Virus record (IMG/VR): IMGVR_UViG_3300021387_000147
Length of the DNA stretch: 64,000 nt
Direction: 5' to 3' (one strand)
From: a virus
Lineage: Duplodnaviria > Caudoviricetes
The notes beneath the pieces are model-generated. The model ran no database searches. It was not told the origin of the DNA and was given only the letters and a program-made list of their open reading frames with translations. Position numbers and translations under genes: made by a program. Shown one piece after another: positions 5,077-54,502 of the stretch (the stretch's first letter is position 1; every line of letters starts with the position of its first letter).

Positions 5077-6068
5077 TATGCTACCTTTAATTCATTAGAA
5101 ACTTTTTTATAGCGAAGAACATACTTCATTTTAACAGGAGTATTACGATAATTAAATGTTTTACTTGTTTTTTCTACTTTATCTAAAACATACTGACCAG
5201 CAAATTTGATTTTATTACCCTTTCCAACGAAGAAATTGTAAATATCATCTTTAGCTGTCTTATAACGCCAATTTTCAGAGTACTCTTCATTCGTATACAT
5301 ATCCATTGTCGACAAATCATTAGCATATTCATTATACCAATATCTACCTTGACCCTTAGCATTCCAATTGTTCATATCACGAGTCAAGAAAATCTGGCCA
5401 GGATATTTCTTTGTCAATTCCTTATCTGGATTTGTATTTTGAATAGAACCCTTTGTTAAATCATGACCATATTTCTTATAAAGAACTTCTACAATAGATT
5501 CTTTTCCTTTAGATGCCTTTCCCCAAGTTGGTGTCTGCAACAAAGTATTAAACAAATCAGACTTTGTAATGAATTCAAAATTATCTTTAATTCTAATCTT
5601 ATCACCTGAATTATATCTAATAAATCCAGGACGGTCATCCCAATTAAACTTCTTATGTTTAGCTACATGTTTACGAACGCATTGCAAGAATTTTTCAATA
5701 TCTTCCATTTTCTTTTCTATACCATGCGTCACATCTACACGGCAAATCTCAAAGTCATCGCGACCAATCATTGCCATCTTTTCAAAAATATCCAATTCAC
5801 GTTGCTTATCTGCTTCTTTCTGACGAGCATGGTGACCTTCATCAACTTCCAATCCAACATTGATTGCATCAAAAGTCAAATCAATTAGAGCCTTTCCATT
5901 ATCTCTCTTTACATAAGCCTGGAATGTTGGCTTCAAATCCCAAAATTTAAACCCCATTCTATCCATTAGACGGAGTTTAACCGTATTGATAACTTCTACT
6001 TCAAACTTCTTGTGGTCATGCTTATTTAGTTCTTCAGACCAATATAAATCTTTTTCATCAATTGTCAT
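5076..6068 (-). CDS. PvuRts1I/AbaSI-like PD-(D/E)XK nuclease
   Basis: Q.YVKR...ALIDL.F....LEVDEGHH..Q.EAD..RE.DI resembles the AbaSI-family nuclease domain; longer C-terminal domain follows. Confidence 0.65.
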   Translation of the reverse strand: MTIDEKDLYWSEELNKHDHKKFEVEVINTVKLRLMDRMGFKFWDLKPTFQAYVKRDNGKALIDLTFDAINVGLEVDEGHHARQKEADKQRELDIFEKMAMIGRDDFEICRVDVTHGIEKKMEDIEKFLQCVRKHVAKHKKFNWDDRPGFIRYNSGDKIRIKDNFEFITKSDLFNTLLQTPTWGKASKGKESIVEVLYKKYGHDLTKGSIQNTNPDKELTKKYPGQIFLTRDMNNWNAKGQGRYWYNEYANDLSTMDMYTNEEYSENWRYKTAKDDIYNFFVGKGNKIKFAGQYVLDKVEKTSKTFNYRNTPVKMKYVLRYKKVSNELKVA

Positions 6069-8505: not shown

Positions 8506-11500
8506 GCTTTAGCCAACCTTTCAAAAAAGTCTTCATCTTCATTGATTTCTGTAATTTCTTTATTTTCAATCATCTTACAGACTTTCTTATAATTCTCATC
8601 AAACTTCTGTAGAGTTGGCAATTCACCAAAACCATCTCTCAATGAAGCATTCTTAAATGGAATCATCTTAATCTGCACATTCTTCTTATATTCATTGAAT
8701 GTAGATAATGCAGTCTGTAAAAATTCCATTGACTTATCAATTACTTCACTTGCCATTTCTACATAACAATCTGTAGATAATAACTTAATTCCAGCCTTAG
8801 ATTCCAACTTATCACTTTCACTTTCAAATTTAAATGTAATCTTTGTAAAGTCTATTTGAAGTGGATCACACGTGTTATAATAACGCTGTTGCTTATTAGG
8901 CTGAATTCCATAGACTTCTAATTCCTTAGTTGTCAAATTAGCATGAATGAAATAATTTGCTCGACAACCATATCTATCCTTATTGACTTCTCTCAAGATA
9001 ACTTCATAAGGAGATGCTTCAAATTGAATTGTAATTGCATCATTAGTCAAAAATTCAGCTTTATTCTTATCTAAGCCTGATGCATATTTCTTACTTAGAC
9101 GTTCAACAACGTCAATCATCTTTAACTTTAATTCAGTTTCTTTCTTAAGGTCCGCAAATTTAATTTTATCTACGTCCTTTATTTTATCAGCGATTTTTGA
9201 AAAATCAACCATCATTTTTTGTTTCCTTAAAAGAAATAGTTTTTATCTTCATATCTTTATAATACTTCTTAAATGACTTTACTGCAGTATCAATCAAATT
9301 ATGCATTTGGTCAAAGTGCATACACAAGAAAGTAAAACATTTATCTAACTGTTCAGGAGTACAATCACTTCCCATATATTGAACTTCACCAGTAGAAAAT
9401 TGAATATTGGCTAAATCAAAATTATATTTATCTCTCCATTCTGCAAAATCAGAATCAGAAATGAATTTATACTTTATACAAGATACTTCTGTATCTACTT
9501 CATCATGTAAATTAGAAGTAATTGCCTTAAACTCAAACAAGTAAGATGGTAAATATATTTTAACTTTATCGTAGTCAAATAGACTGCACATTGAAGTTTT
9601 CAATCTAAATTCATATTCTTGTCCATCATCAACAGCAACAGCAAGACCATCTTTCTTATCAAAATACTTCTTGATAAGCATATCACACAAATCAAGAGCA
9701 AACTTTTCTCTTTTATTGCGTTCTTTTAAAACGTCATAATTATAACTCATCCTATTGTTTCCTTACCAATAATCATTTCAATTTCTTTGCGCTTTATTCC
9801 ATTCCTTACTTTCTTACAATAATCAGCAAGAAATTCTGGAGTCAATAAAGTCACATTGATTTTCATATATTCACTTACTCCAATTCTATCTAATGGATCT
9901 TCCTCATCTGGATCAATGTAAAACTTAGTTCCAAGATCTGCATATACAGTTCTTAATTCAATAAGATATGATTCATTATATTTTTCCAAACAAGGTAATG
10001 TGAAATATGTTCCATAACCATCACTACAATCAATAAAACCTGCTTCCAAAATCATTTTTTTGATTTCTTTCTTAGGCGGTTTCTTAATCAAAGTAAATTC
10101 TTCCATATTAACCCCAATTTGGAACGCTCAAACCAACGGTCTTGATTTGTGCAAGTTTAAAAAGACGAATAATTCTCTGTGCATATCTTGTAAAGAATGT
10201 TTCATCAATACAATTATATTTAACCAAGAACATATCAGAGACAATGCTTTCATCTATAGACAAATTACATTGATCTGACTTTGGAACTCTACGCACAGCA
10301 AAAATCACTTTCTTATTAGCTAATACTTCTCCATTCTGACCAATTCTCAAAATTGGAAGTGTATGACTAATTTGTGGAAGCATGTAATAACATTCTTGAC
10401 TATTAAATTCAAAGCCAGCATCTTCTGCCATCTTTACAACATCTTCACGCTTCCTTTCTTCAATAAAATCCAAGTCAGGCTCTTTTCCACGAAAATCAAG
10501 AATATCTACTTGAGTAAATCCAAGCTCAAGTTCAAAATCTTTATCTACGTCTTTAAATAAATTATCCATTTTCATTTTCTACTTCCGCGTTGAGGCTTAA
10601 AAGTGTTAAATCAAGTTCTTTCTTAAATCTATTCAATCTCTTTGCATAACCACAAAGAAAATCTTCGTCAACTACCTTAAATTCTCTCTTTTCATTTGTA
10701 TTCCAAGATATATCCCATTGATTACGCTTCCAATTATTTCTTGCATGTGAAATTGTCACTTGTCCATAATTAGGATTGTTTTTATCATAAATCTTGTTTG
10801 GATATATCTCAAAAACATGCGCAATATAAATATACTTTGTTCCAATCTCAATTGGAGCATTATAATCTAATAATGCTGGAACAGTCCATTGGTCATCTTT
10901 TCTACCATAAGATGGATATAATGCTCTAACAAAACCACAATCTTCTAATAGTTTTATCATTTCTTTCTTTGTTTTCCTTTGTATCTTATCAAACAAAGGA
11001 ATTTTACACCATTCACCTACCTTTAAATCTAACATTGCTTCTTATACTCCGATTTAAACGTTCCACTGACGATTGCCTTAATTCTTGCTTGTCGCTGCAT
11101 TTCTTCCAATGCTTGCTCATCTTCCAAATCACCATTCAACGAAACAATCGCCAAATCCTTTTCTTTCATTTTTCGAGTAAACCAATCTTTATAATCAACG
11201 AAAAATTCTTCTTTAAAATCAAGATTGTTTATATACGACATTGCTTTCACATTCCAACCATCAAAAACAGCACGTTTAACATTCGAATATGGGTCTTTAA
11301 CAACTTGGAAATTAAACTTTGTCGCATAACAACAATGATCATCATAAACTTCAATCAATACTTGATTTCCAACAGGTCCACAAAATGGCGCAATAGTGCA
11401 TTGATAATGATTTGACGCTCCACTATATTCCCAACATACAAAACCAATCGCTTCTAACTTCTTAGCGATTTCCTTTGCCTCTGGCCCTTTACGTCTAGGA

Positions 11501-14349: not shown

Positions 14350-14517
14350 TTATTCCATATTTCCTTGCCAATCAAAATTATAGACTCTTTTTTGACCATC
14401 CATATCATAAATTTCTACTTTATATGGTGAATGGTCTTCAATTGGCTCTTTAGGTTTCTTTTCTTTTTTAACTTTTGGTTCTTTTTTAGAATCTTTCTTA
14501 GTCACAGTCTTCTTCAT
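14350..14517 (-). CDS. 55 aa Lys-rich protein (not in ORF track)
   Basis: Hand translation MKKTVTKKDSKKEPKVKKEKKPKEPIEDHSPYKVEIYDMDGQKRVYNFDWQGNME; overlaps the upstream stop; terminator follows. Confidence 0.55.
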   Translation of the reverse strand: MKKTVTKKDSKKEPKVKKEKKPKEPIEDHSPYKVEIYDMDGQKRVYNFDWQGNME

Positions 14518-14890
14518 GACAAATCCTTTCTATCTTTTCTTTTTTGGAACGCATTTTGGCTTGTTTGAAATTATATGTATAATTATCAACAACAGAAATA
14601 CAATCCTGTTCTACTACTTTTCCATAAGGAATCTTGACCGCATTTGCTTTATTTTTCTCAGTAAGCCAATAACATCCTTTATCATCGAAACGTTTAACTT
14701 CTCTAATAAGCTTATAAAGCTTACCATTTTCAAGATTAGCAATTTCATACAAGTGAATAGCACCGGTATAATCAGTAATTGGATAGCCAATCATATCTAG
14801 ATACCATCCTTTGAATTCAGTAGATCTGATTTCCATTCCAAGTTCTTTGAAATAGTCAAGTATTCCTTGTCTGTCATGCGTCTTAATCAT
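14498..14890 (-). CDS. Hypothetical protein with shared C-terminal tail (KKEKIERICHEED)
   Basis: Tail matches the 47-52 kb array. Confidence 0.65.
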   Translation of the reverse strand: MIKTHDRQGILDYFKELGMEIRSTEFKGWYLDMIGYPITDYTGAIHLYEIANLENGKLYKLIREVKRFDDKGCYWLTEKNKANAVKIPYGKVVEQDCISVVDNYTYNFKQAKMRSKKEKIERICHEEDCD

Positions 14891-15748: not shown

Positions 15749-16664
15749 TTATCCGACCAAACATAACCATTACCAGAGCACCAGCCATGTTGTTTGAAAT
15801 TCTTTGTTTTACAAGCCAGTACACATTTCTTTTCAATCTTTATAATTGGGTCATTAAATGTTTTAGTTATAAATTTCAATCTTTTTTCTAAATTTGTAAT
15901 TACTGAATTTCCTTCTAAAATAAGCTGACTATCACAATCAATTAAATCATGTGAAATGTGACCGTCTTTATAATAGATTTTTAATTCAAATAACATTACT
16001 TACACACTCTTTCTTTACAAAGTGAATGAATTTCAAAATACTTTTTCAGCTTATTCTGCATAGAACATGCAGACAAATAAATTGGATAGCGTTCCTTATC
16101 ATCCTCTGGAGGAATTCGATAATCACGAGAATAATCTTCAAACAACATATTCCAATGCTGTCCATCAGGATAAATATCATCATACTTTCTAACTACTTGG
16201 CCAATAAACTTAAGAGCATCAACAAAATAATCATACTTGTCACCCTTAAGATCGATATAGACCTTAGGAAATTTTACTGGAGTTCGTATCCATCTAATTG
16301 TAGAAGCAGTCACACCAGACAAATAAAAACCCTTATTTCCATCAAGTCCAAACGGAACCTTAACAGTGACAGAAGGCTTCCAACCATATTGGCCTGGATC
16401 ACGTGAAGTTAAATTGCATTGAAGTGAACCAGCAAAATTTCCACGTTGATCATCATTTATCATAGTAATGCTATGATATGCATTTGATGCCTTCAAATCT
16501 TCAACAAATTCATTGAAATTTTTTAAATGGTCACTAGCAATAATTTTGTCCATGCTCTTGAGCTGGGACTTATAACTTTCCACAGCGCGCTGATACTCTC
16601 CATCAATTTGATCATGCGCAATATTAAAAAACTGTATAGGAGTACAATCCTGACAAATATACAT
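15730..16664 (-). CDS. Two hypothetical proteins (15730, 15996); 15996 ends in the shared tail KKYFEIHSLCKE
   Basis: Packed ORFs downstream of promoter cassette copy 4. Confidence 0.6.
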
Positions 16665-19562: not shown

Positions 19563-20978
19563 CAAGAGCAAGTCCAACAATCAACAAAACCATCAAAGCC
19601 AAGTCATACAAACCACGGAACGGATGGCCTGTGAAAATATTGAGAATTCCAATTCCACGAAAAACAGCCAAAATTATTCCCATTACGAATGCCAAACCTC
19701 CAAGAGGATTTGTGGCGGAAATGATGGTCAAAACAAGTAGCGCTATAATTCCAAGCAATACTATGATGGCTGAAAGAACTTTGATTCCATCACCCTGGTC
19801 TGCGGCCGTAGCCATTTCGCCGAAACACTTGATGATTCCTACCACATGCTGAATTGCACAGAGAATGAAGAGAATTGTGAGCATAATTGCCATAGTTATT
19901 TTTCCTTTTTGCTAATGTTTTTAATGAGTTTTTTCTTTGTATTAATTCTAGAACATCTTTCAAGATAGTCAAATAAACTTTCTCTACATTCTAGAAATTT
20001 ATTATATTCTTTTTGATGGTCTTTGAAATACTGTTCGAATGTGCCCTTAAATGGCTTATAGTCAGTTGCAAATCCCATATTATTGTGATTAGGGATATTA
20101 TAAAAATAATATAAAGACTCTCGATCACGAATACTAAACTTATCTTTAAAAAAGTTTACAAAATCAATAAGATTTTTTCTACTTATATTAAAGTATGATT
20201 CTCTTTTAATTTGATCACCTGCTCGAGATTCAACAAAGCCCGTTGGCATAGTCATCCAAAAACTAACAACATTTGTAAGTTTACCATTGATTTCACGAAC
20301 TTCTAGATTAATGCCGGCTATATTTGTAGTTTCGTAATGTTTATCAACATAATTATATTGCTGAGTGTAAGCAAGTTCAATAGATGCCAAATGTGCATCA
20401 CTTTTATAGATATGCATAAAATTAAATGACTTATGGACAATAAGTGTTTTCAGCCAATCATTCATTGCAGACACAGCAGGTTTCATTTCTATTCCTTAAT
20501 TTGTTTTAAATGAGCGTAATTCCCAGAATGCAGAAAATCACGAGTAAAAATACCAAGAATAATAAACCGACAAGTTCACAAACAATAAAGCAAAGAATGA
20601 ACTTGCCAATTATGATTAAAAATTCTTTCATTACTTAGTAGCCTTTTCAATAAACTTTTCAGCAATCTTATCGATAGCGCCTTTAGTCTTAAGGCCATTG
20701 CAATCGACAGTGAGTCCACCCATGTGATCAGACCAAGGATAGCCTTCGCTATCGTAGCCAATCCAAATTTCTTCAATCATCATTTCATGCTTATCGCACG
20801 GCCAGAAGATGAAGCGGTGAGAATTGATGCAATGACAAGTGCCATTGTCAGTGCGAATGTTGAGGGTAAGTTGGTCGTTATCGACAGAAGTACCATCAAC
20901 GTTGAGGTTGTTTTTAACTGCCACAGTTCCAACAGCAGTGCGAAGTTCTTCCAAAAACATTTCCATAGTCATATTCAT
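19558..20978 (-). CDS. Membrane protein (19558) and hypotheticals (19896 with KKKLIKNISK tail; 20631)
   Basis: Packed ORFs on the coding strand. Confidence 0.6.
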
Positions 20979-28587: not shown

Positions 28588-29862
28588 TTACTTATTGGAC
28601 AACTTAGAAGTCAAATCCATAAGCATGTTCAGACCAACAGCGTCCATAGCATTGCTTGCGCCATTCTTACCATCACCACCAGTCATCATGATTTCTGGTA
28701 CAAGTGGGTGAGAGGACTTAGCAAGAGCTTCTGCAACACCAACCTTAGTCTTATATTCCCATTCAGCACGTTCCTGAGGAGTCAAACCTGCAGCGACCAA
28801 TGCTCTATTAGCCTGAGCTTCTGCTTCCTTTTCAGCCTTAATCTTCTTAGCAACTTCAATTGCCTTTAGAGCTTCAAGACGAGCAACTTCCTTTTCACGT
28901 TCAGCATTCAAAATAGCAACTGCCTTTTCCTTTTCAGCCATAGTCACTTCAGTCATCTTCTGAACTTCCTGAGTAGCCTTAGCTTCTGCAATCTTTGCAT
29001 CACCTTCAGCCTTTGCAGTAATAGCCTTCTGCTTAGCAGTTTCTGCTGCGGTTGCATTTGCTACACGCTGCATTTCACGTTCCTTAACAATATCCAACTG
29101 TTGCTGAGCCTTAGGATCCAACTTTACGTTCTGAATTTCCAACTGCTTTACAACAATACCATACTGAGTAATTGGAGACTTCTTAGTGATAATTCGATGA
29201 CCATCCTTATCTAGCTTCAGCTTAGTAACACGGTATTCCTGAACTTCAGCCTTCTTAACGACCTTACCAGTGGAATCAACTTCATCTTCGCCAGCCTTTT
29301 CCTTAAGTACTTCAATTGTGGTCAAGTATTCACCTTCAACGAGCTGGTCTTCAGCAAGACGACGGAATTCTGCAATCTTTGTAACCTTTGCTTCTTCAGC
29401 GGTAAACAATGGAGCGGTCTTACGAACTGCAGAGAGAACAGCATTTCGAACTAGATTATGCTTTACACCCTTATCACTACGCTGGTTCTTATGAAGTTCA
29501 ATCAACTTATCACAGTCGGTTGGAAGCTCATACATAAGATAACCAGAAATATCTGCGTTTGCATTTCGAGATAGCGTTACAGAAATGTCATCTTCATCAT
29601 CTTCATCGCCTTCCCAACCTTCACCGTTCACCTTTTCATTAGAACTATTGAAATAGAAGGACTTTGCGAGGTCATACTTATAGATGGATGCGAAGCCCTT
29701 GAAATAAAGACCCTGACCCTCTACGCATGACAGCGTTCCGAATGGAGACTGCTTAATGAGCAATTCAGTTGACTGCTTATAGCCCACCATCTTTCCAGCG
29801 AAAATGCCAAGAAGAATGAGCACGATTACGGCAAGAATGCCGAGAACTTGTGTCTTTGTCAT
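28588..29862 (-). CDS. SPFH/Band-7 (flotillin-like) membrane protein
   Basis: N-terminal TM, SPFH-like core (QYGIVVKQLEIQNV), Ala/Glu/Lys coiled coil, VP.IMM.GG tail. Confidence 0.75.
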   Translation of the reverse strand: MTKTQVLGILAVIVLILLGIFAGKMVGYKQSTELLIKQSPFGTLSCVEGQGLYFKGFASIYKYDLAKSFYFNSSNEKVNGEGWEGDEDDEDDISVTLSRNANADISGYLMYELPTDCDKLIELHKNQRSDKGVKHNLVRNAVLSAVRKTAPLFTAEEAKVTKIAEFRRLAEDQLVEGEYLTTIEVLKEKAGEDEVDSTGKVVKKAEVQEYRVTKLKLDKDGHRIITKKSPITQYGIVVKQLEIQNVKLDPKAQQQLDIVKEREMQRVANATAAETAKQKAITAKAEGDAKIAEAKATQEVQKMTEVTMAEKEKAVAILNAEREKEVARLEALKAIEVAKKIKAEKEAEAQANRALVAAGLTPQERAEWEYKTKVGVAEALAKSSHPLVPEIMMTGGDGKNGASNAMDAVGLNMLMDLTSKLSNK

Positions 29863-37255: not shown

Positions 37256-37774
37256 TCACCTATATTTCAATCCAAACTGTTCTTCTGTCAATACCTTAAA
37301 AAGATAACCATGTTGTCGACACCAACGTTTAGCGGCTTCCCACTTCTCATAGTTTCTTCTCAATGTATTACATCTCTCCTGCCAATTTTCTATTGCCTTC
37401 TTTGATTTCTTTTGAGGTGGATCTGGATATTTAATCTGACCCGCCTCATTCAATATAGGTGTCTGACTTTCTGGCTTTACTTCCAAAATATACTTCTTTA
37501 CTTGTCCATCTTTATCTTTACAAACAAATAAAAAATCAGTCACATATACATGATTCTTTCCATCAATCTGTGAATAATATGGAACTTCCAATACTTCAGA
37601 ACCCCATTCAATTACCGAATTTGTTCTATCACAGAAGTTGCAAAAAATCTTTTCCCAAGAACTTCTAAATGTAATAGGTTTTGCTCTAGGCATTCTCCCA
37701 TTATAATTTAGACATTTTTCAGGATGATCTGGCTTAAAACAGCCTTGTAAATAATTACCACTAAATATACTCAT
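37256..37774 (-). CDS. Head completion nuclease (T4 gp4-like)
   Basis: FKP.HPEK, FRSSWE, CD....V.EWGSE..VPY, Y.TDF, LEVKP..QT, KWEAA..WC, FKVLTE. Confidence 0.88.
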   Translation of the reverse strand: MSIFSGNYLQGCFKPDHPEKCLNYNGRMPRAKPITFRSSWEKIFCNFCDRTNSVIEWGSEVLEVPYYSQIDGKNHVYVTDFLFVCKDKDGQVKKYILEVKPESQTPILNEAGQIKYPDPPQKKSKKAIENWQERCNTLRRNYEKWEAAKRWCRQHGYLFKVLTEEQFGLKYR

Positions 37775-44079: not shown

Positions 44080-45699
44080 TTACCACTTTACTGCATAATC
44101 AGGTTTCTTTTCTTCTGTAATTTCTACAGCCACATCTTCTGTAGATAATGTCATACTTAGTTTATCTGATGTTGATTTATTTATCTGAGGATTTAATGTT
44201 TTATCTAATGATGTTTCATATAATGTTTGAATATCACCAGATGGTAATTCATCATTTGTATTTATATTATCACCGAACTTCAACCAATGTTGTGCACATG
44301 TTTTATTCAATCCATCGCCAAAGAATTCCTTACATATATCATTTAAGAAATTTACAGGTGCTGTATCAAAACCATTACCATGATCACCAAATAATTGCAT
44401 TACTCCACCATAAACTAACATAGTTGCTAATGCTAATTCACCTGTTGCTGTTCTAAATATACCAGGATTTCCAGTAGACATACCTTGTCTAACTGCTGCT
44501 CTATCTTTTGCAACTTCAAAAGATGATCGATCTAAATCTTCCCAATTTGCTGGATAATATGCATACAAAGGTTTACCAAGTCTTCTACATTGAAAACTTG
44601 TTTTATCATAGATAGAATAATTTTTATTTGATTCTAATATAATAGCATGTAAAATTGAAACTGGTGATTGATACCAAGATTCTCCTTTTAATGTTGCTTT
44701 TTGTGCTTTTGAATATACTGTCACATTTGGATCATAAGAAAAATACCATTGTGGATTTCCATATCCTGTTAAATCTTGTGCAGAATTATAATTATAAACA
44801 CCTCTATGTTTTGTTATATTACCATTAATACTCATTACTGTAGCAGTAATATAATTTTGCATAATAGCAACTTCTTTATATGCTCCATCCATTTGATATG
44901 AATTTAATGGTACAAATGCATCAACACCATTCCATACACATAATTGTAATGCAGTTTCACCTATATCTTTAAGATATGATAATTCATTATGTGGAACGAA
45001 ATGATTATTTTCCCAAACAACAGATGATCTATAACCAGGAGCAGACGTTGTTTCTTCAACACTATATAAACATGCAGATGATGAAAAATTTTTCATAGCT
45101 GTTGCTGCTATAAAATTTCCACTTGTCCATTTAGATGTATTAGATGTAATATAATCATAAACTGATTGTTTATAATCATTAATAAATTTCTTTTCATCAT
45201 TATATTCATGATATTCTGCTATATCACCAAATTTACCATCATTTGCAGTAAATGTATACTTAAAAGTATAATTATAATAACTTCCTGGACCAGAAGCAGC
45301 TCCACCAGAACCAGTTAATCTTACAGTCCATTGAATACCATCTATAGTTAATGGACATCCTGCCCATACTCTATATGTACACCAATTTTTTAATTCTTCA
45401 ACCCAAAAATATTTACTTTGTGTTGGATCTGATTTTTCTGTACTACCAATTTTTAAATAACCATTATCATTTGGACTACTACAATATTCTGTTTTATTTT
45501 GCCAATTATAAGGTTCTACATATTCACCATTAGCAATCTTTTCTGCTAATGTTTCTTTTACATCTTCTATTGTTTCACTATTATAAGAAACTTTATCTAA
45601 ACCAAAATCAATTACTTTACTACTATTATGAATACTATTCTGTGTAGTTATTGTTTGATTTCGTTTAGTAGCTTCAACTGTTTTAAAATATCCTATCAT
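44080..45699 (-). CDS. Late hypothetical (probable virion) protein
   Basis: TATAAATA at 45704-45711. Confidence 0.65.
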   Translation of the reverse strand: MIGYFKTVEATKRNQTITTQNSIHNSSKVIDFGLDKVSYNSETIEDVKETLAEKIANGEYVEPYNWQNKTEYCSSPNDNGYLKIGSTEKSDPTQSKYFWVEELKNWCTYRVWAGCPLTIDGIQWTVRLTGSGGAASGPGSYYNYTFKYTFTANDGKFGDIAEYHEYNDEKKFINDYKQSVYDYITSNTSKWTSGNFIAATAMKNFSSSACLYSVEETTSAPGYRSSVVWENNHFVPHNELSYLKDIGETALQLCVWNGVDAFVPLNSYQMDGAYKEVAIMQNYITATVMSINGNITKHRGVYNYNSAQDLTGYGNPQWYFSYDPNVTVYSKAQKATLKGESWYQSPVSILHAIILESNKNYSIYDKTSFQCRRLGKPLYAYYPANWEDLDRSSFEVAKDRAAVRQGMSTGNPGIFRTATGELALATMLVYGGVMQLFGDHGNGFDTAPVNFLNDICKEFFGDGLNKTCAQHWLKFGDNINTNDELPSGDIQTLYETSLDKTLNPQINKSTSDKLSMTLSTEDVAVEITEEKKPDYAVKW

Positions 45700-45703
45700 A
45701 CTT

Positions 45704-45738
45704 TATTTATAAACAAAAAGTGGCCTTATCGGCCACTT
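45704..45738 (-). promoter_or_regulatory. Terminator hairpin (45716-38) followed by late promoter TATAAATA (45704-11)
   Basis: AAGTGGCC-loop-GGCCACTTTTT then TATAAATA. Confidence 0.75.
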
Positions 45739-45761
45739 CATAAATTCATCTCTTACCAAAA

Positions 45762-46763
45762 TTATGCTATTTCAAAGAATCCTAATGGAGATTCCAATCT
45801 TATCTGTTCTCTACAATCATCCCATTCTTCTTTATAAGATGAATACAAAGAATCAGCATTCAAAGAACCACCGCCTGCAATTGATAAAGTATACTTACGC
45901 AATGCATTAGTCCATATCATACCTGCTCTTGCAACTACCATACGTCTAAAGATTACATCATTAAATAACTTACTTGACTTCTGTCTCTTGTATACTTCCA
46001 TCAATCCTCTTACAGGATGGTCAGGTTGAGGCCATACAGATAATTCCTTTTCTTTCTCATTATATCTTACGGTATATGATTCACCGAAATCCATCTTAGC
46101 CTGTTCCAACCATACAAGTGCAGCATTCCAATGACCTAGAACATCACCAAATCCACCAGCATTACTATAACAAGAACCTGTAAAGGAACTACCCATACTC
46201 ATTACTGTGTTATACAAAGCATTGTGTGGTAGAGTAAACAAATCATTGATTGTTCCCATCCAATCTGAAACTTGGAAATCTACAATAGACTCTAATTCAT
46301 CACAGATTTTATAGTGTGATTTTCCTGGTACTAAGTCCATAACAAGATAATCTCTATAATTACCTTCTCTGAAATAATACTTCCACATGTATTTAACTGT
46401 ATCAGCAATAATGAAATTCAATTGCTGATCTGAAATTTCAATACAAATTACTGGAGCACCTAACATCATCTTAATGTAGTTTCTCATTTGAGCTACATTC
46501 TGAATGTTCATCGCATCCATAAACTCATCCCTAACAGGAGGTTTAAATGGAGGATGTGGAGGTGCAGGTGGATGAGGTGGAATTATATCAGGTTTTGGTC
46601 CTGTTCCTGGCCATGGTCCATCTGCTGGAGGGAATGGTCCTCTTATTTCATTTCCTGGAAGCATACCATCCATTGGAGGATGCATTGGAAACATTCCACC
46701 TGGAGGTGGAGGAGGTTTTGGAAATGGTCCTTTCTTAGTAATTTCTTGTGTTATATTAGCCAT
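45762..46763 (-). CDS. Neck protein (T4 gp13-like) with Pro-rich N-terminal extension
   Basis: YIKMMLGAPVICIEISDQQL, W...L.KY....AGG..LN. Confidence 0.82.
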   Translation of the reverse strand: MANITQEITKKGPFPKPPPPPGGMFPMHPPMDGMLPGNEIRGPFPPADGPWPGTGPKPDIIPPHPPAPPHPPFKPPVRDEFMDAMNIQNVAQMRNYIKMMLGAPVICIEISDQQLNFIIADTVKYMWKYYFREGNYRDYLVMDLVPGKSHYKICDELESIVDFQVSDWMGTINDLFTLPHNALYNTVMSMGSSFTGSCYSNAGGFGDVLGHWNAALVWLEQAKMDFGESYTVRYNEKEKELSVWPQPDHPVRGLMEVYKRQKSSKLFNDVIFRRMVVARAGMIWTNALRKYTLSIAGGGSLNADSLYSSYKEEWDDCREQIRLESPLGFFEIA

Positions 46764-46767
46764 ATAC

Positions 46768-46810
46768 TATTTATAACACAAAATAAAAAAGATGGTATTA
46801 ACCATCTTTA
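46768..46810 (-). promoter_or_regulatory. Terminator (46786-46810) and late promoter TATAAATA (46768-75)
   Basis: AAGATGGT-loop-ACCATCTTTTT then TATAAATA. Confidence 0.75.
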
Positions 46811-47164
46811 TTTCTTTTTCTTAGGAGCTCTCTTCCTTTCTGTTGTAATTTTCTTTTGCAACTTCTCATTAGCCTCTTCCATACTCATTGTTTCTAAGGC
46901 TGATTTCTGTATAATTGCTTTAGGCTTATTCTTCTCAATATATTCTTTATCCTCATCATATTCTTGTGGAGTTTCAAATTTTCTCCAATAAGATACTCTG
47001 TAGATATTACCAATCTGTTGAGACATTGCTAAGAAATTCTTTTTACATTTCTCCTTAAATGCTTGTGCTTCCTTTTCTGTAGCAAACTCTCTATAAGTCG
47101 TATCCTCACGAGGGAATGCTAACCACTTTGGAGCATATTTGCTCACATATTCTTTATTTGCCAT
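46808..47164 (-). CDS. Basic hypothetical protein
   Basis: Last ORF of the array operon. Confidence 0.6.
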   Translation of the reverse strand: MANKEYVSKYAPKWLAFPREDTTYREFATEKEAQAFKEKCKKNFLAMSQQIGNIYRVSYWRKFETPQEYDEDKEYIEKNKPKAIIQKSALETMSMEEANEKLQKKITTERKRAPKKKK

Positions 47165-50100
47165 TAGAACTTCTCCTTACAAATGTTTTGAATTTGTCTT
47201 CTTTTAATTTCAGCTTTCAATTTACGAATATAATCAACTATTGATTGTAAACGATTTACAAGCTTCTTAGGTTTTTTGTAATAATTATATCTATCGTCCA
47301 TCAAAATAAAATACTTCATAACTCCTTCAGCATTTCTTTTTTGAGCCATTTTAGGATGATATACCTTACATTCACCATTCGTTTGACATGAAGCAATTAA
47401 CTTATGACGTGCATTATCATTGTCAACATAAATTCCAATAGTCTCATCCCATGGAGCTATAGAAAAAGTAGTAAAACCAAACTTTTCTGCTATTTGTTTA
47501 AATTCCACTTGAGTCATGTATATGCTCCTGTAAAGCAATATTCTTTATTTGTGCTTTCTTATAATATCTTGTTCTCTTCTTATATAAATCTTCCAAATGG
47601 TCGACCATACTTTTAAAGTTATGATATTGTCTTAATTTCAAATTCTTATAGAAAACATCATATCTCCACAGTTTATGTTTCTTATACCAATGATAAAATT
47701 CTTTATATGTTTTACAATATTTTTTATAAATAAGTATTTTAAAATCATCATCCTCTCTTATGTAGATATATGGAACACTATCAAAAGTTAGAGCAGTCTC
47801 AAAAAAATTAGAACTGATCATATCATCAACATGTGCTAAAGGACATAATTCTTCTAGCTTTAATTTAATTAGATATAAATCATGTTCATTAAAACTTGTT
47901 TCTTCTTTAATTCTATAATCACATTCAAGTCTTATAGCCCAAATAAAAACAAATACAGCAATAGGTAAAACAGCTATTATAAACATTATTCATCTTGTCC
48001 TATTGATTTAATTAATCTTAATTTATATTGTTTCTTCCAAAATAATGTGTCTTTTTCAACTCTTTTCAAATGATTTTTAAGTGCTTCTTTTGAAGCCAAT
48101 GTTCTTCCATTACCTCTTGTACAAATGGCGCCCATACAATCTAAACGAATATCATAGCATCCACCTCTTTTAGTTTCAGCATCAAGCCATGCAATCAAAT
48201 TATCTGCAGCTCTTTCATTATTCAAATAGATAGCTACATAATTTGAATATTCACCATCTGTATCATAACCAAATTCTTTAGCTACTTCTATGAATTCTTC
48301 TTTAGTCAATTGTTTCGCCATCTGCAATACTCTTAATTTGATTTAATTTTATAATACGTTTATAAATGTGTATTCTTTCTGTGACTTCATCAAGCCAATC
48401 AATAAATTCTTTTTGTGTCTTAACTACTTTTGAATTTTGTTCTGTCTCTATAAGATTGATAGCTCTATAAAATATTGGGTTATGTAATTCTACACCATAA
48501 GAACAACATATCGCTAAACACATTTCATTTGTATAAATGTTATCAATGTGTATACGATAATCTCCCATTGATTCTAATAAAGGATTTAATTCAAATCCAT
48601 ATTGTTTAGCTATATTTTTAAAATCTGAGGCTTTCATACATCTTCCTTACATATATTCTTAATAGCTTCAAGTTTCTTTAACTTATTAAGTTTAGTTTCA
48701 AATGTAGGAACTTGTTTAATAAATTCTTCTAATGTTCGAATACGTGCAAATTCTTTTTGCTTCCATAGTGGATATTCATCAACCTTAACAATAAAGAAAT
48801 ACTTATCTTTAGATTTATGATATTTTAACCATTCTTTATATGTTTTAAAATTGTTCTTGTATAACATACAAAAGAAACGAGTATCATTTAGTCCATAACC
48901 ATGATTTAATCTAGAAATTGTAAAATAATCTTTGCCTTTACAACTTACTTCTAAACCACATCTACGAATAGACCTATCAATCATTGCAACAATCTTTGTA
49001 CCTTCTTCATCACTAACAGTAATTGGCATTGACATTAAACGTAAGCGTCCTAAAAGATAACTTACATAAAAAATTGCCATAATACCAAATATAATTGCTA
49101 AAGGTTCCATTAGTCTTCCTCTTTACAAATACTTTGAATTTTCATTAATTTTTCTTTTCTAACTGCAAGCTTCATTTGATTTGGTATATCATTAAACATT
49201 TGATAAAAATCATCATACTTAGCAACAGGATTCAAATATTGAAATGCTCTTGCTTCAAATACATACGATAAACTAAATCTCAAATCTGGCATTTTTCTTT
49301 TCTTTAAGAAATCAAAAAAACTTGTATAAGTCAATCTATCAAAAGTATAATATAATTTATCTTCAATATAAAACGCATCTTTATATATTGCAAAGTTCAT
49401 TTCATATCCATATTTAGTTTCTACTTTCTTTTTAATTGTATCAAAAAGAAATTTCCTTGTTTGTTGGTCAAAATATGGTAGCTCATCCTTAATAAGATTA
49501 TAATGAATTACTTGGTATATCATCCAAAGAACGCATAACGTTAATGCGGTCATCAAAATAAAAGCTACACCTATACCAATAATCGGAACTAACATATATC
49601 CTTTTCTTTACAAATACTTTCAATCAATAATTTCTTATAAATTTTCTTTCTATCTCTAATAAGTCTTGGAAATTCTTTTTCAAGCTTAAGAATATCAGTG
49701 TACACTTCAAATAATGTTTCATCAGGATATGGACCAGATATGTATTCATTATACGGCATATAAAAAACTGAATAGTAAATATTGGATTTATGCTTAAGAA
49801 AATGATCTTTAAAAGAGTAAGGGTTTTTCTTAAGATAAATAGCCATCTCACCAATTTCTACTTCCTTATAAGACCATCTACTATAGAATGGACCATATTT
49901 AACCATATTATACTTTTGATACAGTCCATGCATGTGCAAATAAAACCAATGCCATTCCTTTTCTGTAATATGATTTTTATCATCTTTATAATACTTCCAA
50001 ACCATACACAGTACACCGCATATAGCAAGAAAATATAATGGTGCAAGCATAACATTAATCATCTTTACAAATACTCTCTATTTGAAATTTCTTAATATCT

Positions 50101-52108
50101 TTCTTAATAAATTTTACCAATCTTAAATACAATTCTAAATTCTTTTCAAATTCAGATTCATCTTCAGAATCAAAATACGTTGAAGAGCAACCAGTATCAA
50201 TTGCTCCATTTGTATAAATTTCAATAGCATTCTTTAATTTAATCTGATTACAATTAGTGTTTAATTGCGTAATAACTCTATGATGATCTTCAGGTAAAGA
50301 AAAACAAATAAAATGTTTTCCACCAATAATCTGTTTACCAACTTCCTCTTCAGTCAGTTGTTCCAAACCATGTTTCTTACAGATCTCAATAAATTTTTCT
50401 TCACTCATACTGGATCCTTACAAATGTTTCTAATACGACGGAGCTTTTCAGTTATATTAAAAAGCTTAACTTCCTTTGTAATGCTTAACAATTCATCTTT
50501 CAAAATTGCAGGGTCAGTAACAGTAATTCCATTTATTGCAGTTGACAAATAACATTGACCATCGTAATTAACAATTTTTATTTTGTTATAGAGAACACAT
50601 TCGAATAAAGCATTTCTTAAATGCTTTTTATTATAATCAATAGTGAAGACAATTACAATATTTGCTTCAGATGCAGTAGTATATGTCGGTGTATTTAAAG
50701 AAACTACATACTTTTTGCTTAAACTTTTAGTAGTGTCACATTTATCAAAAAGATCTGGCTCATAACCACATTCATGACAAATGTTCAAAAACTTTTCTTC
50801 ATTTAATGTATCTTCTTTAACGTGAGAAAACATATTATTCCTTACAAATGTGTTTAATTTCGTAGAGCTTTCTTAAGCGAGCAAACTTCTGTTGTAATTC
50901 ATTATTCTTTTGAATTTGCTTTTCAATTTCTTCGTATGCCTTCTTAAATCCATCTACATTCAAACAGTTATCAGTAAACTTAACTGGATATTCTGCGATA
51001 TATTCCTTTGTTGTAGGAAATGCTATTTGATATGCATATTTTTCATTACCTTCATAGAAATAAAGAATACGCAATTTCTGCAAAGTCAGTGTCAATGTAT
51101 GCACAACTTTGTTTGTATACTTTCTTGTCACTGCATCTTTAACAGTTTCAATCGCAGACGTATACTTGATAAATGGATGCTGTGCTTGATGAGCCCAAGG
51201 TTCATTACAATAATGATAAATGAAAGATGTGCCATCACAATTATGATTGAAAAAACTATTGCGCCATAAATCTTCAAGCGTATACTTTTCAAGATAATCA
51301 TCATCTTTAAGTGCATCCATCATGTTAATAGTATATTTCTTTTGAATACCCATAAATGCACCATTTGACCAATTAGCACAGATCTTATTTTCACTTGGAT
51401 GTGCAGTAGAACGTGCCAACTCAGTTCGCACATAAATCTTCAAACATTCAATCATCGCTTGTTTCAATGCATCAGTCATATTCTTTCTATCCTCAATATC
51501 TTGCACAACCTTATTAAACTGTTCAGATACTGACTTCATAAGCAATTCTGTCATTAATCTTCATCCTTTCCAATAGAATGGATGGCGGCATATTTTGCAT
51601 TTCGAACAGAAGCCTTAATCATTGCTTCATTCTTTTCCTGCGTATCTCGAATTAAATCAACTGCCAACTTCCAATCTTCAAAATCTACTTTCTTAGAAAA
51701 ATCAAAATCATATCTTTCACGATAACCACCACATGCAAGCTGAACAGGAAGTTTCTTTTCATCTACATACTGATAAATGAAATTGGGAACCATCATTGTC
51801 AAAGAAATTTGCCATGGATGCCAATTCTGTCCACTTGCTCTCCAAACACTGCAAGTAATATCCTTATAAGTATACAAATTCCAATAAGTATTATCAGCAA
51901 TTTCTAAATAATAGGCTTTGCGGATTTTTTCGAACTTTTTAATAGGGTCGAAAATCACGTGATAGTCATGATGAAAATCACCATTCAAAATCAGCTTTTC
52001 TTCAGACGCTTCATAACGGTCGATAATATACAACTGTTTGGAATGCTCCTTAGACAAATACTGGAGCATATCCACGATTTTCATTTGAGCATCCCATTCG
52101 TTATACAT
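47164..52108 (-). CDS. Tandem array of 11 coupled small genes sharing a C-terminal I-x-x-I-[CGA]-K-[ED] tail (47164, 47498, 47986, 48302, 48634, 49110, 49589, 50055, 50405, 50835, 51554)
   Basis: Overlapping stop/start codons; four have an N-terminal TM and five share [ED/K]F....K..G[FYL]. Confidence 0.8.
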
Positions 52109-52292
52109 TATTCAACTTCTCTTCCGTCAATTTCAGTGTCAGCCAAGAAAGAACCAAACTTCTTGATAATCTTCTGACGATTTTCCTCGGCCTTAGCCTT
52201 GTCATGATACACGCCCCAAATCATACGGCGTTCGGGCTTGTCCATAGTGTTATAAGTCAAAACATATACCTTTTCCATAATTTACCTCTTAA

Positions 52293-52478
52293 TTATTCAG
52301 CAGGCCAAATTGCTTCAATGTGATTAATTCCTACGACAATGGTCGTTCCACTAATTCGCAAATCTTTACAATTAACGAATTTTACGAAATGTTCATCCAT
52401 GGCTTCAATAGTACCGGTAAAACGAGCACCCATGTTAAACTTGCCATGCAACCAGTATCTTTTTCCAATTTCAAGCAT
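52293..52478 (-). CDS. Small Sm/SH3-like beta protein (tentative)
   Basis: G..FTGTIEAMDEHFVKF....INHIEAI pattern. Confidence 0.5.
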   Translation of the reverse strand: MLEIGKRYWLHGKFNMGARFTGTIEAMDEHFVKFVNCKDLRISGTTIVVGINHIEAIWPAE

Positions 52479-52482
52479 CTTA

Positions 52483-52593
52483 ACCTCTTTTATTTTAACA
52501 AGTAAAATATACTAAAAAAGAGGTTTCTTGGAAACCCCTTTTAATGTAAAATAAAGTTTACAGAACTATAAAATATGTAAATTATAGTTTACT
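52483..52593 (-). promoter_or_regulatory. Early promoter cassette copy 10 (boxes 52545-62 and 52576-93; TTTCCA-17-TATATT)
   Basis: Conserved leader, tandem boxes, hairpin over the -35. Confidence 0.85.
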
Positions 52594-54374: not shown

Positions 54375-54502
54375 ACCTCTTTTATTTTAACAAGTAAAAT
54401 ATAAGTATATTTGGATTCTTTGGAAACCCTGTTTTTCGTAAAATAATGTTTACAAAAGGCCTTGGAATGTAAACATTTTGTTTACGTAAACTAAAATTTA
54501 CA
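54375..54502 (-). promoter_or_regulatory. Early promoter cassette copy 11 (boxes 54437-54, 54468-86 [N7], 54485-54502)
   Basis: Conserved leader; TTTCCA-17-TATATT. Confidence 0.85.

Follow-up and report, generated by a model that had tools for sequence, protein, structure and literature searches.

A conserved C-terminal tail on a tandem array of dissimilar proteins in a gut phage

The cargo proteins of encapsulins and bacterial microcompartments are unrelated to one another and carry a short terminal amphipathic peptide that is bound by one receptor surface. Such encapsulation tags are attached through flexible linkers, and they are encoded beside the shell or capsid gene and expressed with it; the capsid-targeting sequence of T4 is N-terminal. 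In the ankyrin/PRANC (F-box-like) families of poxviruses, diverse N-terminal parts are followed by a short C-terminal helical element that docks on one host hub. Here, we analyze 11 tandem genes on the minus strand (positions 47164–52108) of a 64,000-nt stretch of phage DNA, referred to as the window, from the record IMGVR_UViG_3300021387_000147 (Duplodnaviria; Caudoviricetes). The products of these genes are dissimilar over most of their length and end in the same short motif, which we call the tail.

The tail is like encapsulation peptides in being a short terminal amphipathic peptide common to dissimilar proteins, but it appears to extend an integral helix, belongs to a predicted early operon, and is found on four members that are membrane-anchored. 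With the poxvirus PRANC proteins the array has in common many fast-evolving paralogs that combine a variable head with a short conserved C-terminal helix; in contrast, there is no sequence relation between them, the tail does not match the F-box/PRANC profile, and the array system is bacterial rather than eukaryotic. The layout of the locus recalls the genomes of T4-type phages, where conserved gene-boundary sequences drive module shuffling (Arbiol et al., 2010, PMC2839356; Comeau et al., 2014, PMC4122927). The boundary units known as PeSLs consist of an intergenic promoter and a stem-loop (PMC2839356, PMC4122927).

The tail and the selection acting on it

The tail is present in all 11 genes of the array, and its consensus reads K-[LK]-x-x-I-x-[SN]-I-[C/A/G]-[KQ]-[ED] followed by 0–8 residues. 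In the anchored alignment, every tail has a Lys at the position four residues ahead of the first Ile, and the periodicity of an amphipathic, Lys-rich, net-positive helix spans approximately 25–30 residues upstream of the motif. The first-pass annotation of the window had quoted a tail for each of these genes, and all 11 are found where it placed them. The quoted motifs stand, but three of the ends had been cut short: g47498 (genes are named here after their lower coordinate) continues for eight residues past ...IKNIALQE (HIHDSSGI), g48302 for three (TID), and g49589 for two (IC), each of these extensions overlapping the start of the next gene.

A loose version of the motif, [ILVM]..[ILV][CGAS][KQHD][EDKGQ], was scanned in the 117 minus-strand open reading frames (ORFs) of the window (20,430 aa). 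Thirteen of its 23 matches lie 0–4 residues from a C-terminus, whereas the internal rate predicts about 0.3, so that the tail is real and C-terminal, as had been proposed. These 13 matches comprise 10 array genes together with g14498, g15996, and g19896. A hidden Markov model (HMM) built from the 11 array tails only, the kind of scan that the first-pass annotation had suggested, was run on 910 six-frame ORFs; its matches outside the array are given below.

Among 72 distinct tails collected from the pangenome, the first Ile is retained in 72, the second in 66, and the small residue that follows it in all 72 (C in 57, A in 7, G in 7, and S in one). Gly and Cys vary at this position between orthologs; e.g., the Gly of g51554 is replaced by Cys in the orthologous gene of the relative L009. 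Covalent attachment through the Cys, an early suggestion, is unlikely as a general role, given this variation and the presence of Gly, Ala, or Ser in 15 of the 72 tails. The small residue sits 2–11 residues from the free C-terminus, and the residues after it are charged and differ from tail to tail (KEKF, QDE, GETID, KEED, KE, and others). Some endings contain a second Cys (CKEKDIC), the codon of which overlaps the ATG of the next gene in g49589. The mean hydrophobicity of the tails is negative, and their hydrophobic moment is modest (0.1–0.4).

The codons for K-E/D form the AAGGAG-like Shine-Dalgarno sequence (SD) of the next gene, 5–9 nt ahead of its start, and the stop codon overlaps or abuts the next ATG; in g47498, CAGGAG (Q-E) serves as the SD. 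Synonymous (dS) and nonsynonymous (dN) divergence was estimated from pooled Nei–Gojobori counts between the array and the orthologous 11-gene array of L009. The nine core codons have a dS of 0.47 and a dN of 0.079 (dN/dS 0.17), the 22 codons ahead of the core 0.30 and 0.11 (0.37), the bodies 0.35 and 0.14 (0.40), and the residues past the small residue 0.14 and 0.125 (0.88); the underlying counts are small, with 18.8 synonymous differences in the core and 3.2 after it, although the direction is clear nonetheless. Synonymous sites of the core are unconstrained, since its dS at least equals that of the bodies. Low dN/dS at unreduced dS means that the core K...I..I[C] is kept by purifying selection on the peptide and not on the DNA, and conservation at the protein level is thus the answer to the synonymous versus nonsynonymous comparison that had been called for.

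The trailing K-[ED]-x(0-8) is imposed by the next gene, which is translationally coupled, through its SD and start codon; the low dS, the dN/dS near unity, and the overlap with these signals mark the extreme end as constrained at the nucleotide level. The caveat attached to the first description, that K-E/D may partly reflect the following SD, was therefore well placed and also covers the later residues. Its companion statement, that the I-x-x-I element lies beyond this explanation, agrees with the situation in g48302, where the SD of the next gene (AAGAG) falls within the I-K-S codons, K-E is absent, and I..I-A is retained.

The Ile codons of the motif (ATT/ATA/ATC) are used at 77/18/5%, compared with 63/25/12% genome-wide, i.e., with the same bias, and the small residue is encoded by codons unrelated to one another (TGT, GGA, GCT, and GCA). 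The Glu codon at K-E is GAG in three of six cases versus 10% genome-wide. The SD lies in the K-E frame at every family junction, whereas all 42 such junctions in the window, the family included, are distributed 20/15/7 over the three frames. No RNA structure was found at the junctions when 70-nt windows were compared with shuffled sequences (mean z −0.04; controls −0.12).

Body types, structural models, and distribution

Together, the genes of the array make up a multigene family that evolves fast, is restricted to one lineage, and includes soluble, membrane-anchored, and larger proteins. Proteins of the A type (g47164, g47986, g48302, g50055, and g50405) have weak full-length similarity to one another, with F and G invariant in the N-terminal helix. 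Those of the B type (g47498, g48634, g49110, and g49589) are also weakly similar over their full length, and each has an N-terminal transmembrane (TM) helix. For comparison between types, the last 28 residues were cut off, as was the TM segment in B, and the A, B, and two C bodies and the dispersed members were aligned by hhalign. No homology between body types was detectable in these alignments (probabilities ≤2.3%, equal to those of two unrelated neighbour proteins used as controls), in agreement with the three dissimilar types recognized at first pass. At the same time, HMMs built from the tails of a single type reach the other types at E values from 3.5e-5 to 0.19, only across the last 14–28 residues. 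The cross-type similarity is confined to these tail matches; therefore, the element common to all types is about 20 residues long at the sequence level. Body lengths range from 111 to 239 aa, yet the tail stays in exact register with the C-terminus. Body identity to the L009 orthologs is 52–92%, versus 95% for the flanking g46808, and the pN of the neighboring gp13-like gene is 0.013.

Searches of PHROGs and Pfam with 10 array proteins gave no match above threshold. The sole Pfam match, to F-box_4 (E 0.008; 16.5 bits, cut-off 32), covers residues 94–136 of one protein and lies outside the tail. ESM Atlas feature searches with three of the proteins yielded no usable match.

The model of g47164, based on 29 aligned family members, has a predicted local distance difference test score (pLDDT) of 91. 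It consists of a helix (residues 3–12), five strands including a long hairpin (50–61 and 67–80), and a second helix (83–114) that bears the motif residues K105, I109, I112, and C113; confidence drops only in the last seven residues. Fold searches with this model returned weak matches only, to two-layer alpha-beta-alpha domains, namely the C-terminal domain of T4 MotA, YjbR, frataxin, TriTu, and type III secretion (T3S) chaperones (VIA Z 4.2–6.5, which the tool itself places in the background range; TM score 0.40–0.47; Foldseek E ≥0.14). In its order of elements, the A-type model is like the double-wing/YjbR/frataxin/T3S-chaperone domains (MotA 1KAF/5JLT, YjbR 2FKI, and the TriTu immunity protein 7ZHM): an antiparallel sheet of five strands comes after the N-terminal helix, and the C-terminal helix lies on one face of the sheet. 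However, even the best matches are weak (Z 6.5, TM score 0.47, and Foldseek E 0.14), with values that the tools themselves class as common, and the last 10–20 residues of the helix, those bearing the motif, lie beyond the common fold. Most of the fold alignments stop near residues 96–106 of g47164; thus, the tail would be the last part of an integral helix that reaches past the shared fold.

The AlphaFold2 model of a B-type protein, g48634, has a mean pLDDT of 48.7 and is unusable for fold comparison. A two-copy homodimer prediction for g47164 scored 0.01, a result that weighs neither way on association. The distribution of charges suggests that the tailed domain of the TM-anchored members is cytoplasmic.

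The tail profile was also compared with 1.84 billion representative proteins and gave 24 matches at E ≤1e-3. They end at most four residues from the C-terminus, except for an ortholog of g47498 (seven residues), and almost every one is an ortholog or a fragment of a gene in the window. The 90%-identity clusters contain hundreds of close orthologs, and among the matches listed with a body match, each resembles a member from the window. For the g50835 body, only close orthologs were found, the full-length ones being all tailed. In a more distant relative, a 411-kb IMG/VR record rated 98% complete, there was no match to the tail or to the A and B bodies. No match to the array was found by Megablast in 50,697 phage records, and scanning IMG/VR for patterns taken from the A and B alignments revealed no confirmed relatives. 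The array is absent upstream of gp13 in L001–L003, relatives identified through gp13 (69% identity), in which the genes at this place are on the opposite strand. Bodies and tail are thus confined together to one narrow lineage of gut phages. Two proteins with a new body and a known tail, P0132 and P0136, were considered as evidence of grafting and set aside, as they come from very short contigs or fragments and may be artefacts of assembly or gene calling.

Recombination at the tail codons and the predicted operon

Between the same flanking genes, the array comprises 11 genes in L009, nine in L007, and four in L005. Deletions of two and five genes are observed in L005 and L007, with crossovers inside the common ATTTGTAA, i.e., the I-C-K codons. 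At one junction, the g50405 body runs into the ending of g49589 and the gene downstream of the latter; at another, the g49110 body runs into the g47164 ending KEKF, which is followed by g46808. Ending swaps were found as well: in P0252, g50835 is joined to the g49589 ending, and P0055 also has a recombinant ending, the crossovers again being in ATTTGTAA. Orthologs of g50405 have at least six alternative endings past ICK. Natural in-frame deletions and exchanges of endings, which alter the gene content of the array, therefore have their crossovers in the bases encoding I-C-K.

The array junctions are similar to the PeSLs and hyperplastic regions of T4-type phages in that short conserved boundary sequences in variable early-gene regions are the endpoints of insertions, deletions, and replacements, and they do coincide with the endpoints of indels between close relatives. 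Unlike a PeSL, the joint of the array lies inside the upstream ORF (I-C-K codons plus SD) and overlaps the next start instead of forming an intergenic promoter, and it is devoid of a conserved stem-loop, as the mean z given above indicates. A further difference is that the joint preserves the reading frame and encodes a peptide that is itself under purifying selection. As the joint is in frame, each recombinant retains a complete tailed protein.

The 11 genes make up the bulk of one operon (Table 1). Directly downstream of the array, at 45762–46763, is the gene for a neck protein of the T4 gp13 type (PF26809 on orthologs; head-tail adaptor in PHROG). Judging by promoter and terminator signals, the array is in an early transcription unit that is separate from this late neck gene. 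Its own promoter and terminator, together with a separate late promoter for gp13, speak against a role in the capsid or virion, and the capsid, one of the targets named at first pass, appears unlikely for the same reason. The promoter hexamers recur in identical form at 54426–54398. Contigs from four sheep-gut RNA libraries span the array, although contigs from RNA libraries are no proof of transcription.

Table 1. Predicted features of the array operon, its boundaries, and the dispersed tailed genes. Positions refer to the window.
Feature	Position	Strand	Length and type	Tail or remark
Sigma-70-like early promoter, heads operon	52506..52534	-		TTTCCA-17-TATATT; by sequence match
Two small operon genes before the array	52108..52478	-	61 aa, 56 aa	both without tail
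Array gene 1	51554..52108	-	184 aa, larger soluble type	KYAAIHSIGKDED
Array gene 2	50835..51554	-	239 aa, larger soluble type	KLYEIKHICKE
Array gene 3	50405..50833	-	142 aa, soluble A type	KLRRIRNICKDPV
Array gene 4	50055..50408	-	117 aa, soluble A type	KKFQIESICKDD
Array gene 5	49589..50062	-	157 aa, B type, N-terminal transmembrane anchor	KKLLIESICKEKDIC
Array gene 6	49110..49595	-	161 aa, B type (TM anchor)	KLMKIQSICKEED
Array gene 7	48634..49110	-	158 aa, B type (TM anchor)	KLEAIKNICKEDV; AlphaFold2 model low-confidence
Array gene 8	48302..48637	-	111 aa, A type	KLNQIKSIADGETID
Array gene 9	47986..48321	-	111 aa from ATG 48321, A type	KLRLIKSIGQDE
Array gene 10	47498..47986	-	162 aa, B type (TM anchor)	KKAQIKNIALQEHIHDSSGI
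Array gene 11	47164..47517	-	117 aa from ATG 47517, A type	KRRQIQNICKEKF
Last operon gene	46808..47164	-	118 aa	without tail, KKKK end; 95-97% conserved, always follows the array in relatives
Intrinsic-terminator-like hairpin, ends early operon right after last gene	46788..46809	-		by sequence
T4-type late promoter box, directly upstream of gp13-like gene (45762-46763)	46768..46775	-		TATAAATA
Dispersed member	15996..16664	-	222 aa	KKYFEIHSLCKERVCK; HMM and pattern
Dispersed member	14498..14890	-	130 aa	KKEKIERICHEEDCD; C-terminal pattern and tail-A HMM
Possible dispersed member	19896..20486	-	196 aa	KKKLIKNISKKEK; pattern fits, HMM score not significant
Possible degenerate member	9205..9750	-	181 aa	...KDMKIKTISFKETKNDG; HMM E 0.009, no pattern support

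The starts of two array genes were corrected to match their orthologs, that of g47164 to ATG 47517 (MTQVEF...) and that of g47986 to ATG 48321 (MAKQLT...). The g50835 protein has 239 aa in the window, compared with 214 aa in orthologs from all relatives examined, the difference being 25 additional N-terminal residues; in both the long and the short form, the start overlaps the upstream stop codon. The RNA-library contigs break at 52480–52483 and then run into different sequences, and this position is not a mapped 5' end. The breaks and the identical promoters at 54398–54426 and 52506–52534 are consistent with a repeated PeSL-like promoter cassette that confuses assembly. At 45704–45739 and 46768–46809 on the minus strand, terminator hairpins are followed within 30–40 nt by TATAAATA boxes. 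A terminator and then a late promoter stand ahead of the gp13-like gene and again ahead of the gene after it (start at 45699), which gives these structural genes a regular punctuation.

Outside the array, g15996 and g14498 are credible carriers of the tail by profile and pattern. The tail HMM matches g15996 at E = 0.0016, g9205 at 0.009, and g14498 at 0.33, the last being matched by the tail-A HMM at E = 0.023. The matches in g19896, g10108, and g53225 have E ≥1, a noise-level score, although they lie near the C-terminus, and g9747 was not recovered by the tail HMM among the 910 six-frame ORFs. The list of dispersed tails given by the first-pass annotation thus holds for g15996 and g14498, with HMM support only for g9205 and pattern support only for g19896, and its set of weaker cases (9205, 9747, 10108, and 53225) is mostly unsupported. 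The census of tails covers the 64-kb window and the corresponding loci of relatives.

At 9205–11035 on the minus strand, there is an apparent second cluster of small paralogs (9205, 9747, 10108, and 10562). Its products have an N-terminal helix like that of the A type, closing in G-F (...MILEAGF, ...MAEDAGFEF, ...LLEDCGF), and degenerate tails (EIEMIIGKE, AQIKTVGLS); g9747, g10108, and g10562 are weakly alike in pairwise comparison (BLAST E 1e-4 to 3e-3). The cluster may be an older branch of the tailed family. In the relative L013, an additional tailed gene of 133 aa (5404–5805; P0140, ...KENLIKNICKETIDD) is located between a NUDIX gene and the ortholog of g14498, directly upstream of the latter. 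Therefore, dispersed members also form small, variable tandem sets.

The window is AT-rich, and the minus strand carries nearly all of its genes. Relatives are represented by contigs of 133–494 kb, and these sizes, the 411-kb record, and the neck gene of the gp13 type identify the source as a jumbo T4-like phage. An SD-like motif of at least 4 nt is present at 83 of 117 genes, mostly 5–9 nt ahead of the start. The DNA is found in sheep-gut and other gut metagenomes; the label of one ortholog names a metagenome-assembled genome (MAG) of Succinivibrionaceae (unverified) and that of another a Coprovivens MAG. A 424-aa protein encoded at 28588–29862 on the minus strand has approximately 34% identity to proteins of crAss001-like Bacteroides phages and Vibrio phages that are annotated as SPFH/band-7; a crAss-like identity of the phage, first suggested by this match, proved wrong. 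A 172-aa gene on the minus strand (37256–37774), with orthologs in L005 and L009, lies downstream of two genes of about 250 aa that come after a 1592-aa protein, and its orthologs are annotated with a Tn7 TnsA-like N-terminal endonuclease domain (PF08722).

What the tail may do

The explanation that we tentatively prefer is that the tail core acts as a handle, with a contact surface kept constant for binding a shared partner or for association of the proteins with one another. It is favored because conservation is residue-specific and in exact register on bodies of 111–239 aa without detectable similarity. The helix end would then present one contact surface, used either for association within the family or for binding a single cytoplasmic partner of phage or host origin. 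Such a handle would be borne by variable heads under relaxed or diversifying selection, as expected of host-takeover or anti-defence proteins. If the tailed domains of the TM members do face the cytoplasm, one cytoplasmic partner could serve all types.

Several observations weigh against a shared contact surface. In the only confident model, the motif ends an integral helix, 32 residues long, that belongs to an alpha-beta5-alpha domain and is not joined by a flexible linker, and the conservation of the tail could be purely intramolecular; the B-type model, for all its low confidence, has the A-like order of a helix, strands, and a long terminal helix. The tandem layout and the weak full-length similarity within types are the expected product of duplication. 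Bodies and tail co-occur solely in this lineage, the 411-kb relative being without both, whereas, had a tag been grafted onto imported effectors, homologs of the bodies lacking the tail would be expected elsewhere; that bodies and tail travel together in one lineage favors in-lineage expansion over grafting onto imported domains. These points feed an account of extreme paralogy, in which one small alpha-beta-alpha protein was duplicated in tandem, some copies gained a TM anchor or additional segments, the protein surfaces diverged fast, and the tail is simply the slowest-evolving helix end, packing on its own sheet with no docking involved. We consider this a real possibility, ranked second, and the two readings remain close. 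The paralogy account is in line with the confident A-type model, where the motif is part of a continuous helix preceded by a long beta hairpin that matches it in length, with the C-terminal helix that forms one layer in YjbR, frataxin, the MotA C-terminal domain, T3S chaperones, and TriTu, and with the tolerance of Cys, Gly, Ala, and Ser, which suits a packing position. By-eye reading also finds the A-type N-terminal helix-Gly motif in g14498, g9747, g10108, g10562, and g53225. The paralogy account has more difficulty with the A, B, and C body profiles, which are no more alike than unrelated controls, with bodies of such different length keeping one C-terminal register, and with cross-type similarity that ends abruptly about 14–28 residues from the end. 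A residue-specific motif of K, I, I, and a small residue on such different bodies suggests instead a constant external contact.

A role confined to the nucleic acid is the least probable of the explanations considered, and for the core it is largely refuted. It would make the tail DNA an SD and coupling site and a recombination joint between cassettes, with the peptide incidental. The coincidence of K-E/D with AAGGAG-like SDs, the enrichment of GAG, the lowered synonymous change after the Cys codon, the crossovers of deletions and ending swaps in ATTTGTAA, and the shuffling of modules by boundary sequences in T4-type phages (PMC2839356, PMC4122927) all fit it. Yet amino acids of the core are fixed while its synonymous sites are free, its codon choice follows the genomic bias, Cys, Gly, and Ala alternate through unrelated codons, the family SD always keeps the K-E frame, and the junctions have no RNA structure. 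Only marginally better are the chances of a C-terminal signal for processing or targeting by host machinery, whether a degron, a membrane-targeting amphipathic helix, or a site of Cys modification (CaaX-like or covalent). The tail is indeed C-terminal, basic, and amphipathic and has Cys in most of its distinct versions, and early proteins often require timed removal. However, the varying distance of the motif from the end and the charged, variable last residues are unsuited to CaaX boxes and to degrons read from the C-terminus, the Cys is replaceable, negative mean hydrophobicity and a modest moment hardly suit a membrane-targeting helix, and four members are TM-anchored already.

Three specific signals were rejected. 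A C-terminal degron (ssrA-like or ClpX C-motif) would have a fixed terminal position and non-polar last residues, and the tails have neither. A CaaX box would have its Cys exactly four residues from the end with two aliphatic residues after it, whereas the Cys of the tail lies 2–11 residues from the end, is followed by K-E/D, and is absent from the 15 tails with G, A, or S. For a capsid-targeting or encapsulation peptide, helix 83–114 is continuous with the domain (pLDDT of about 90), the predicted early operon is split from the late neck gene, and no shell gene is present in the operon.

The shared contact surface can be extended to a more far-reaching proposal, which we regard as unlikely in its entirety: the tail would be a portable address tag that docks at least 11–14 early proteins, soluble and membrane-anchored, on one hub, while the DNA encoding it doubles as an in-frame cassette joint for reshuffling the heads. 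This would amount to an undescribed bacteriophage system of handles and heads for effectors.

Functions in host takeover and anti-defence reside mainly in the early, non-essential genes of large phages, almost none of which are annotated. With a single short peptide under strong selection on more than 12 unrelated-looking proteins, the array offers a rare entry point to a possible common partner of the whole set. If diverged paralogs share the tail merely as a structural spine, the family would be an example of body divergence with the terminal helix fixed. Through recombination in the tail codons, such an array can expand, contract, and exchange members while reading frames and translational coupling stay intact, and the shuffling by boundary sequences known from T4-type phages is thereby extended from intergenic cassettes into coding sequence.

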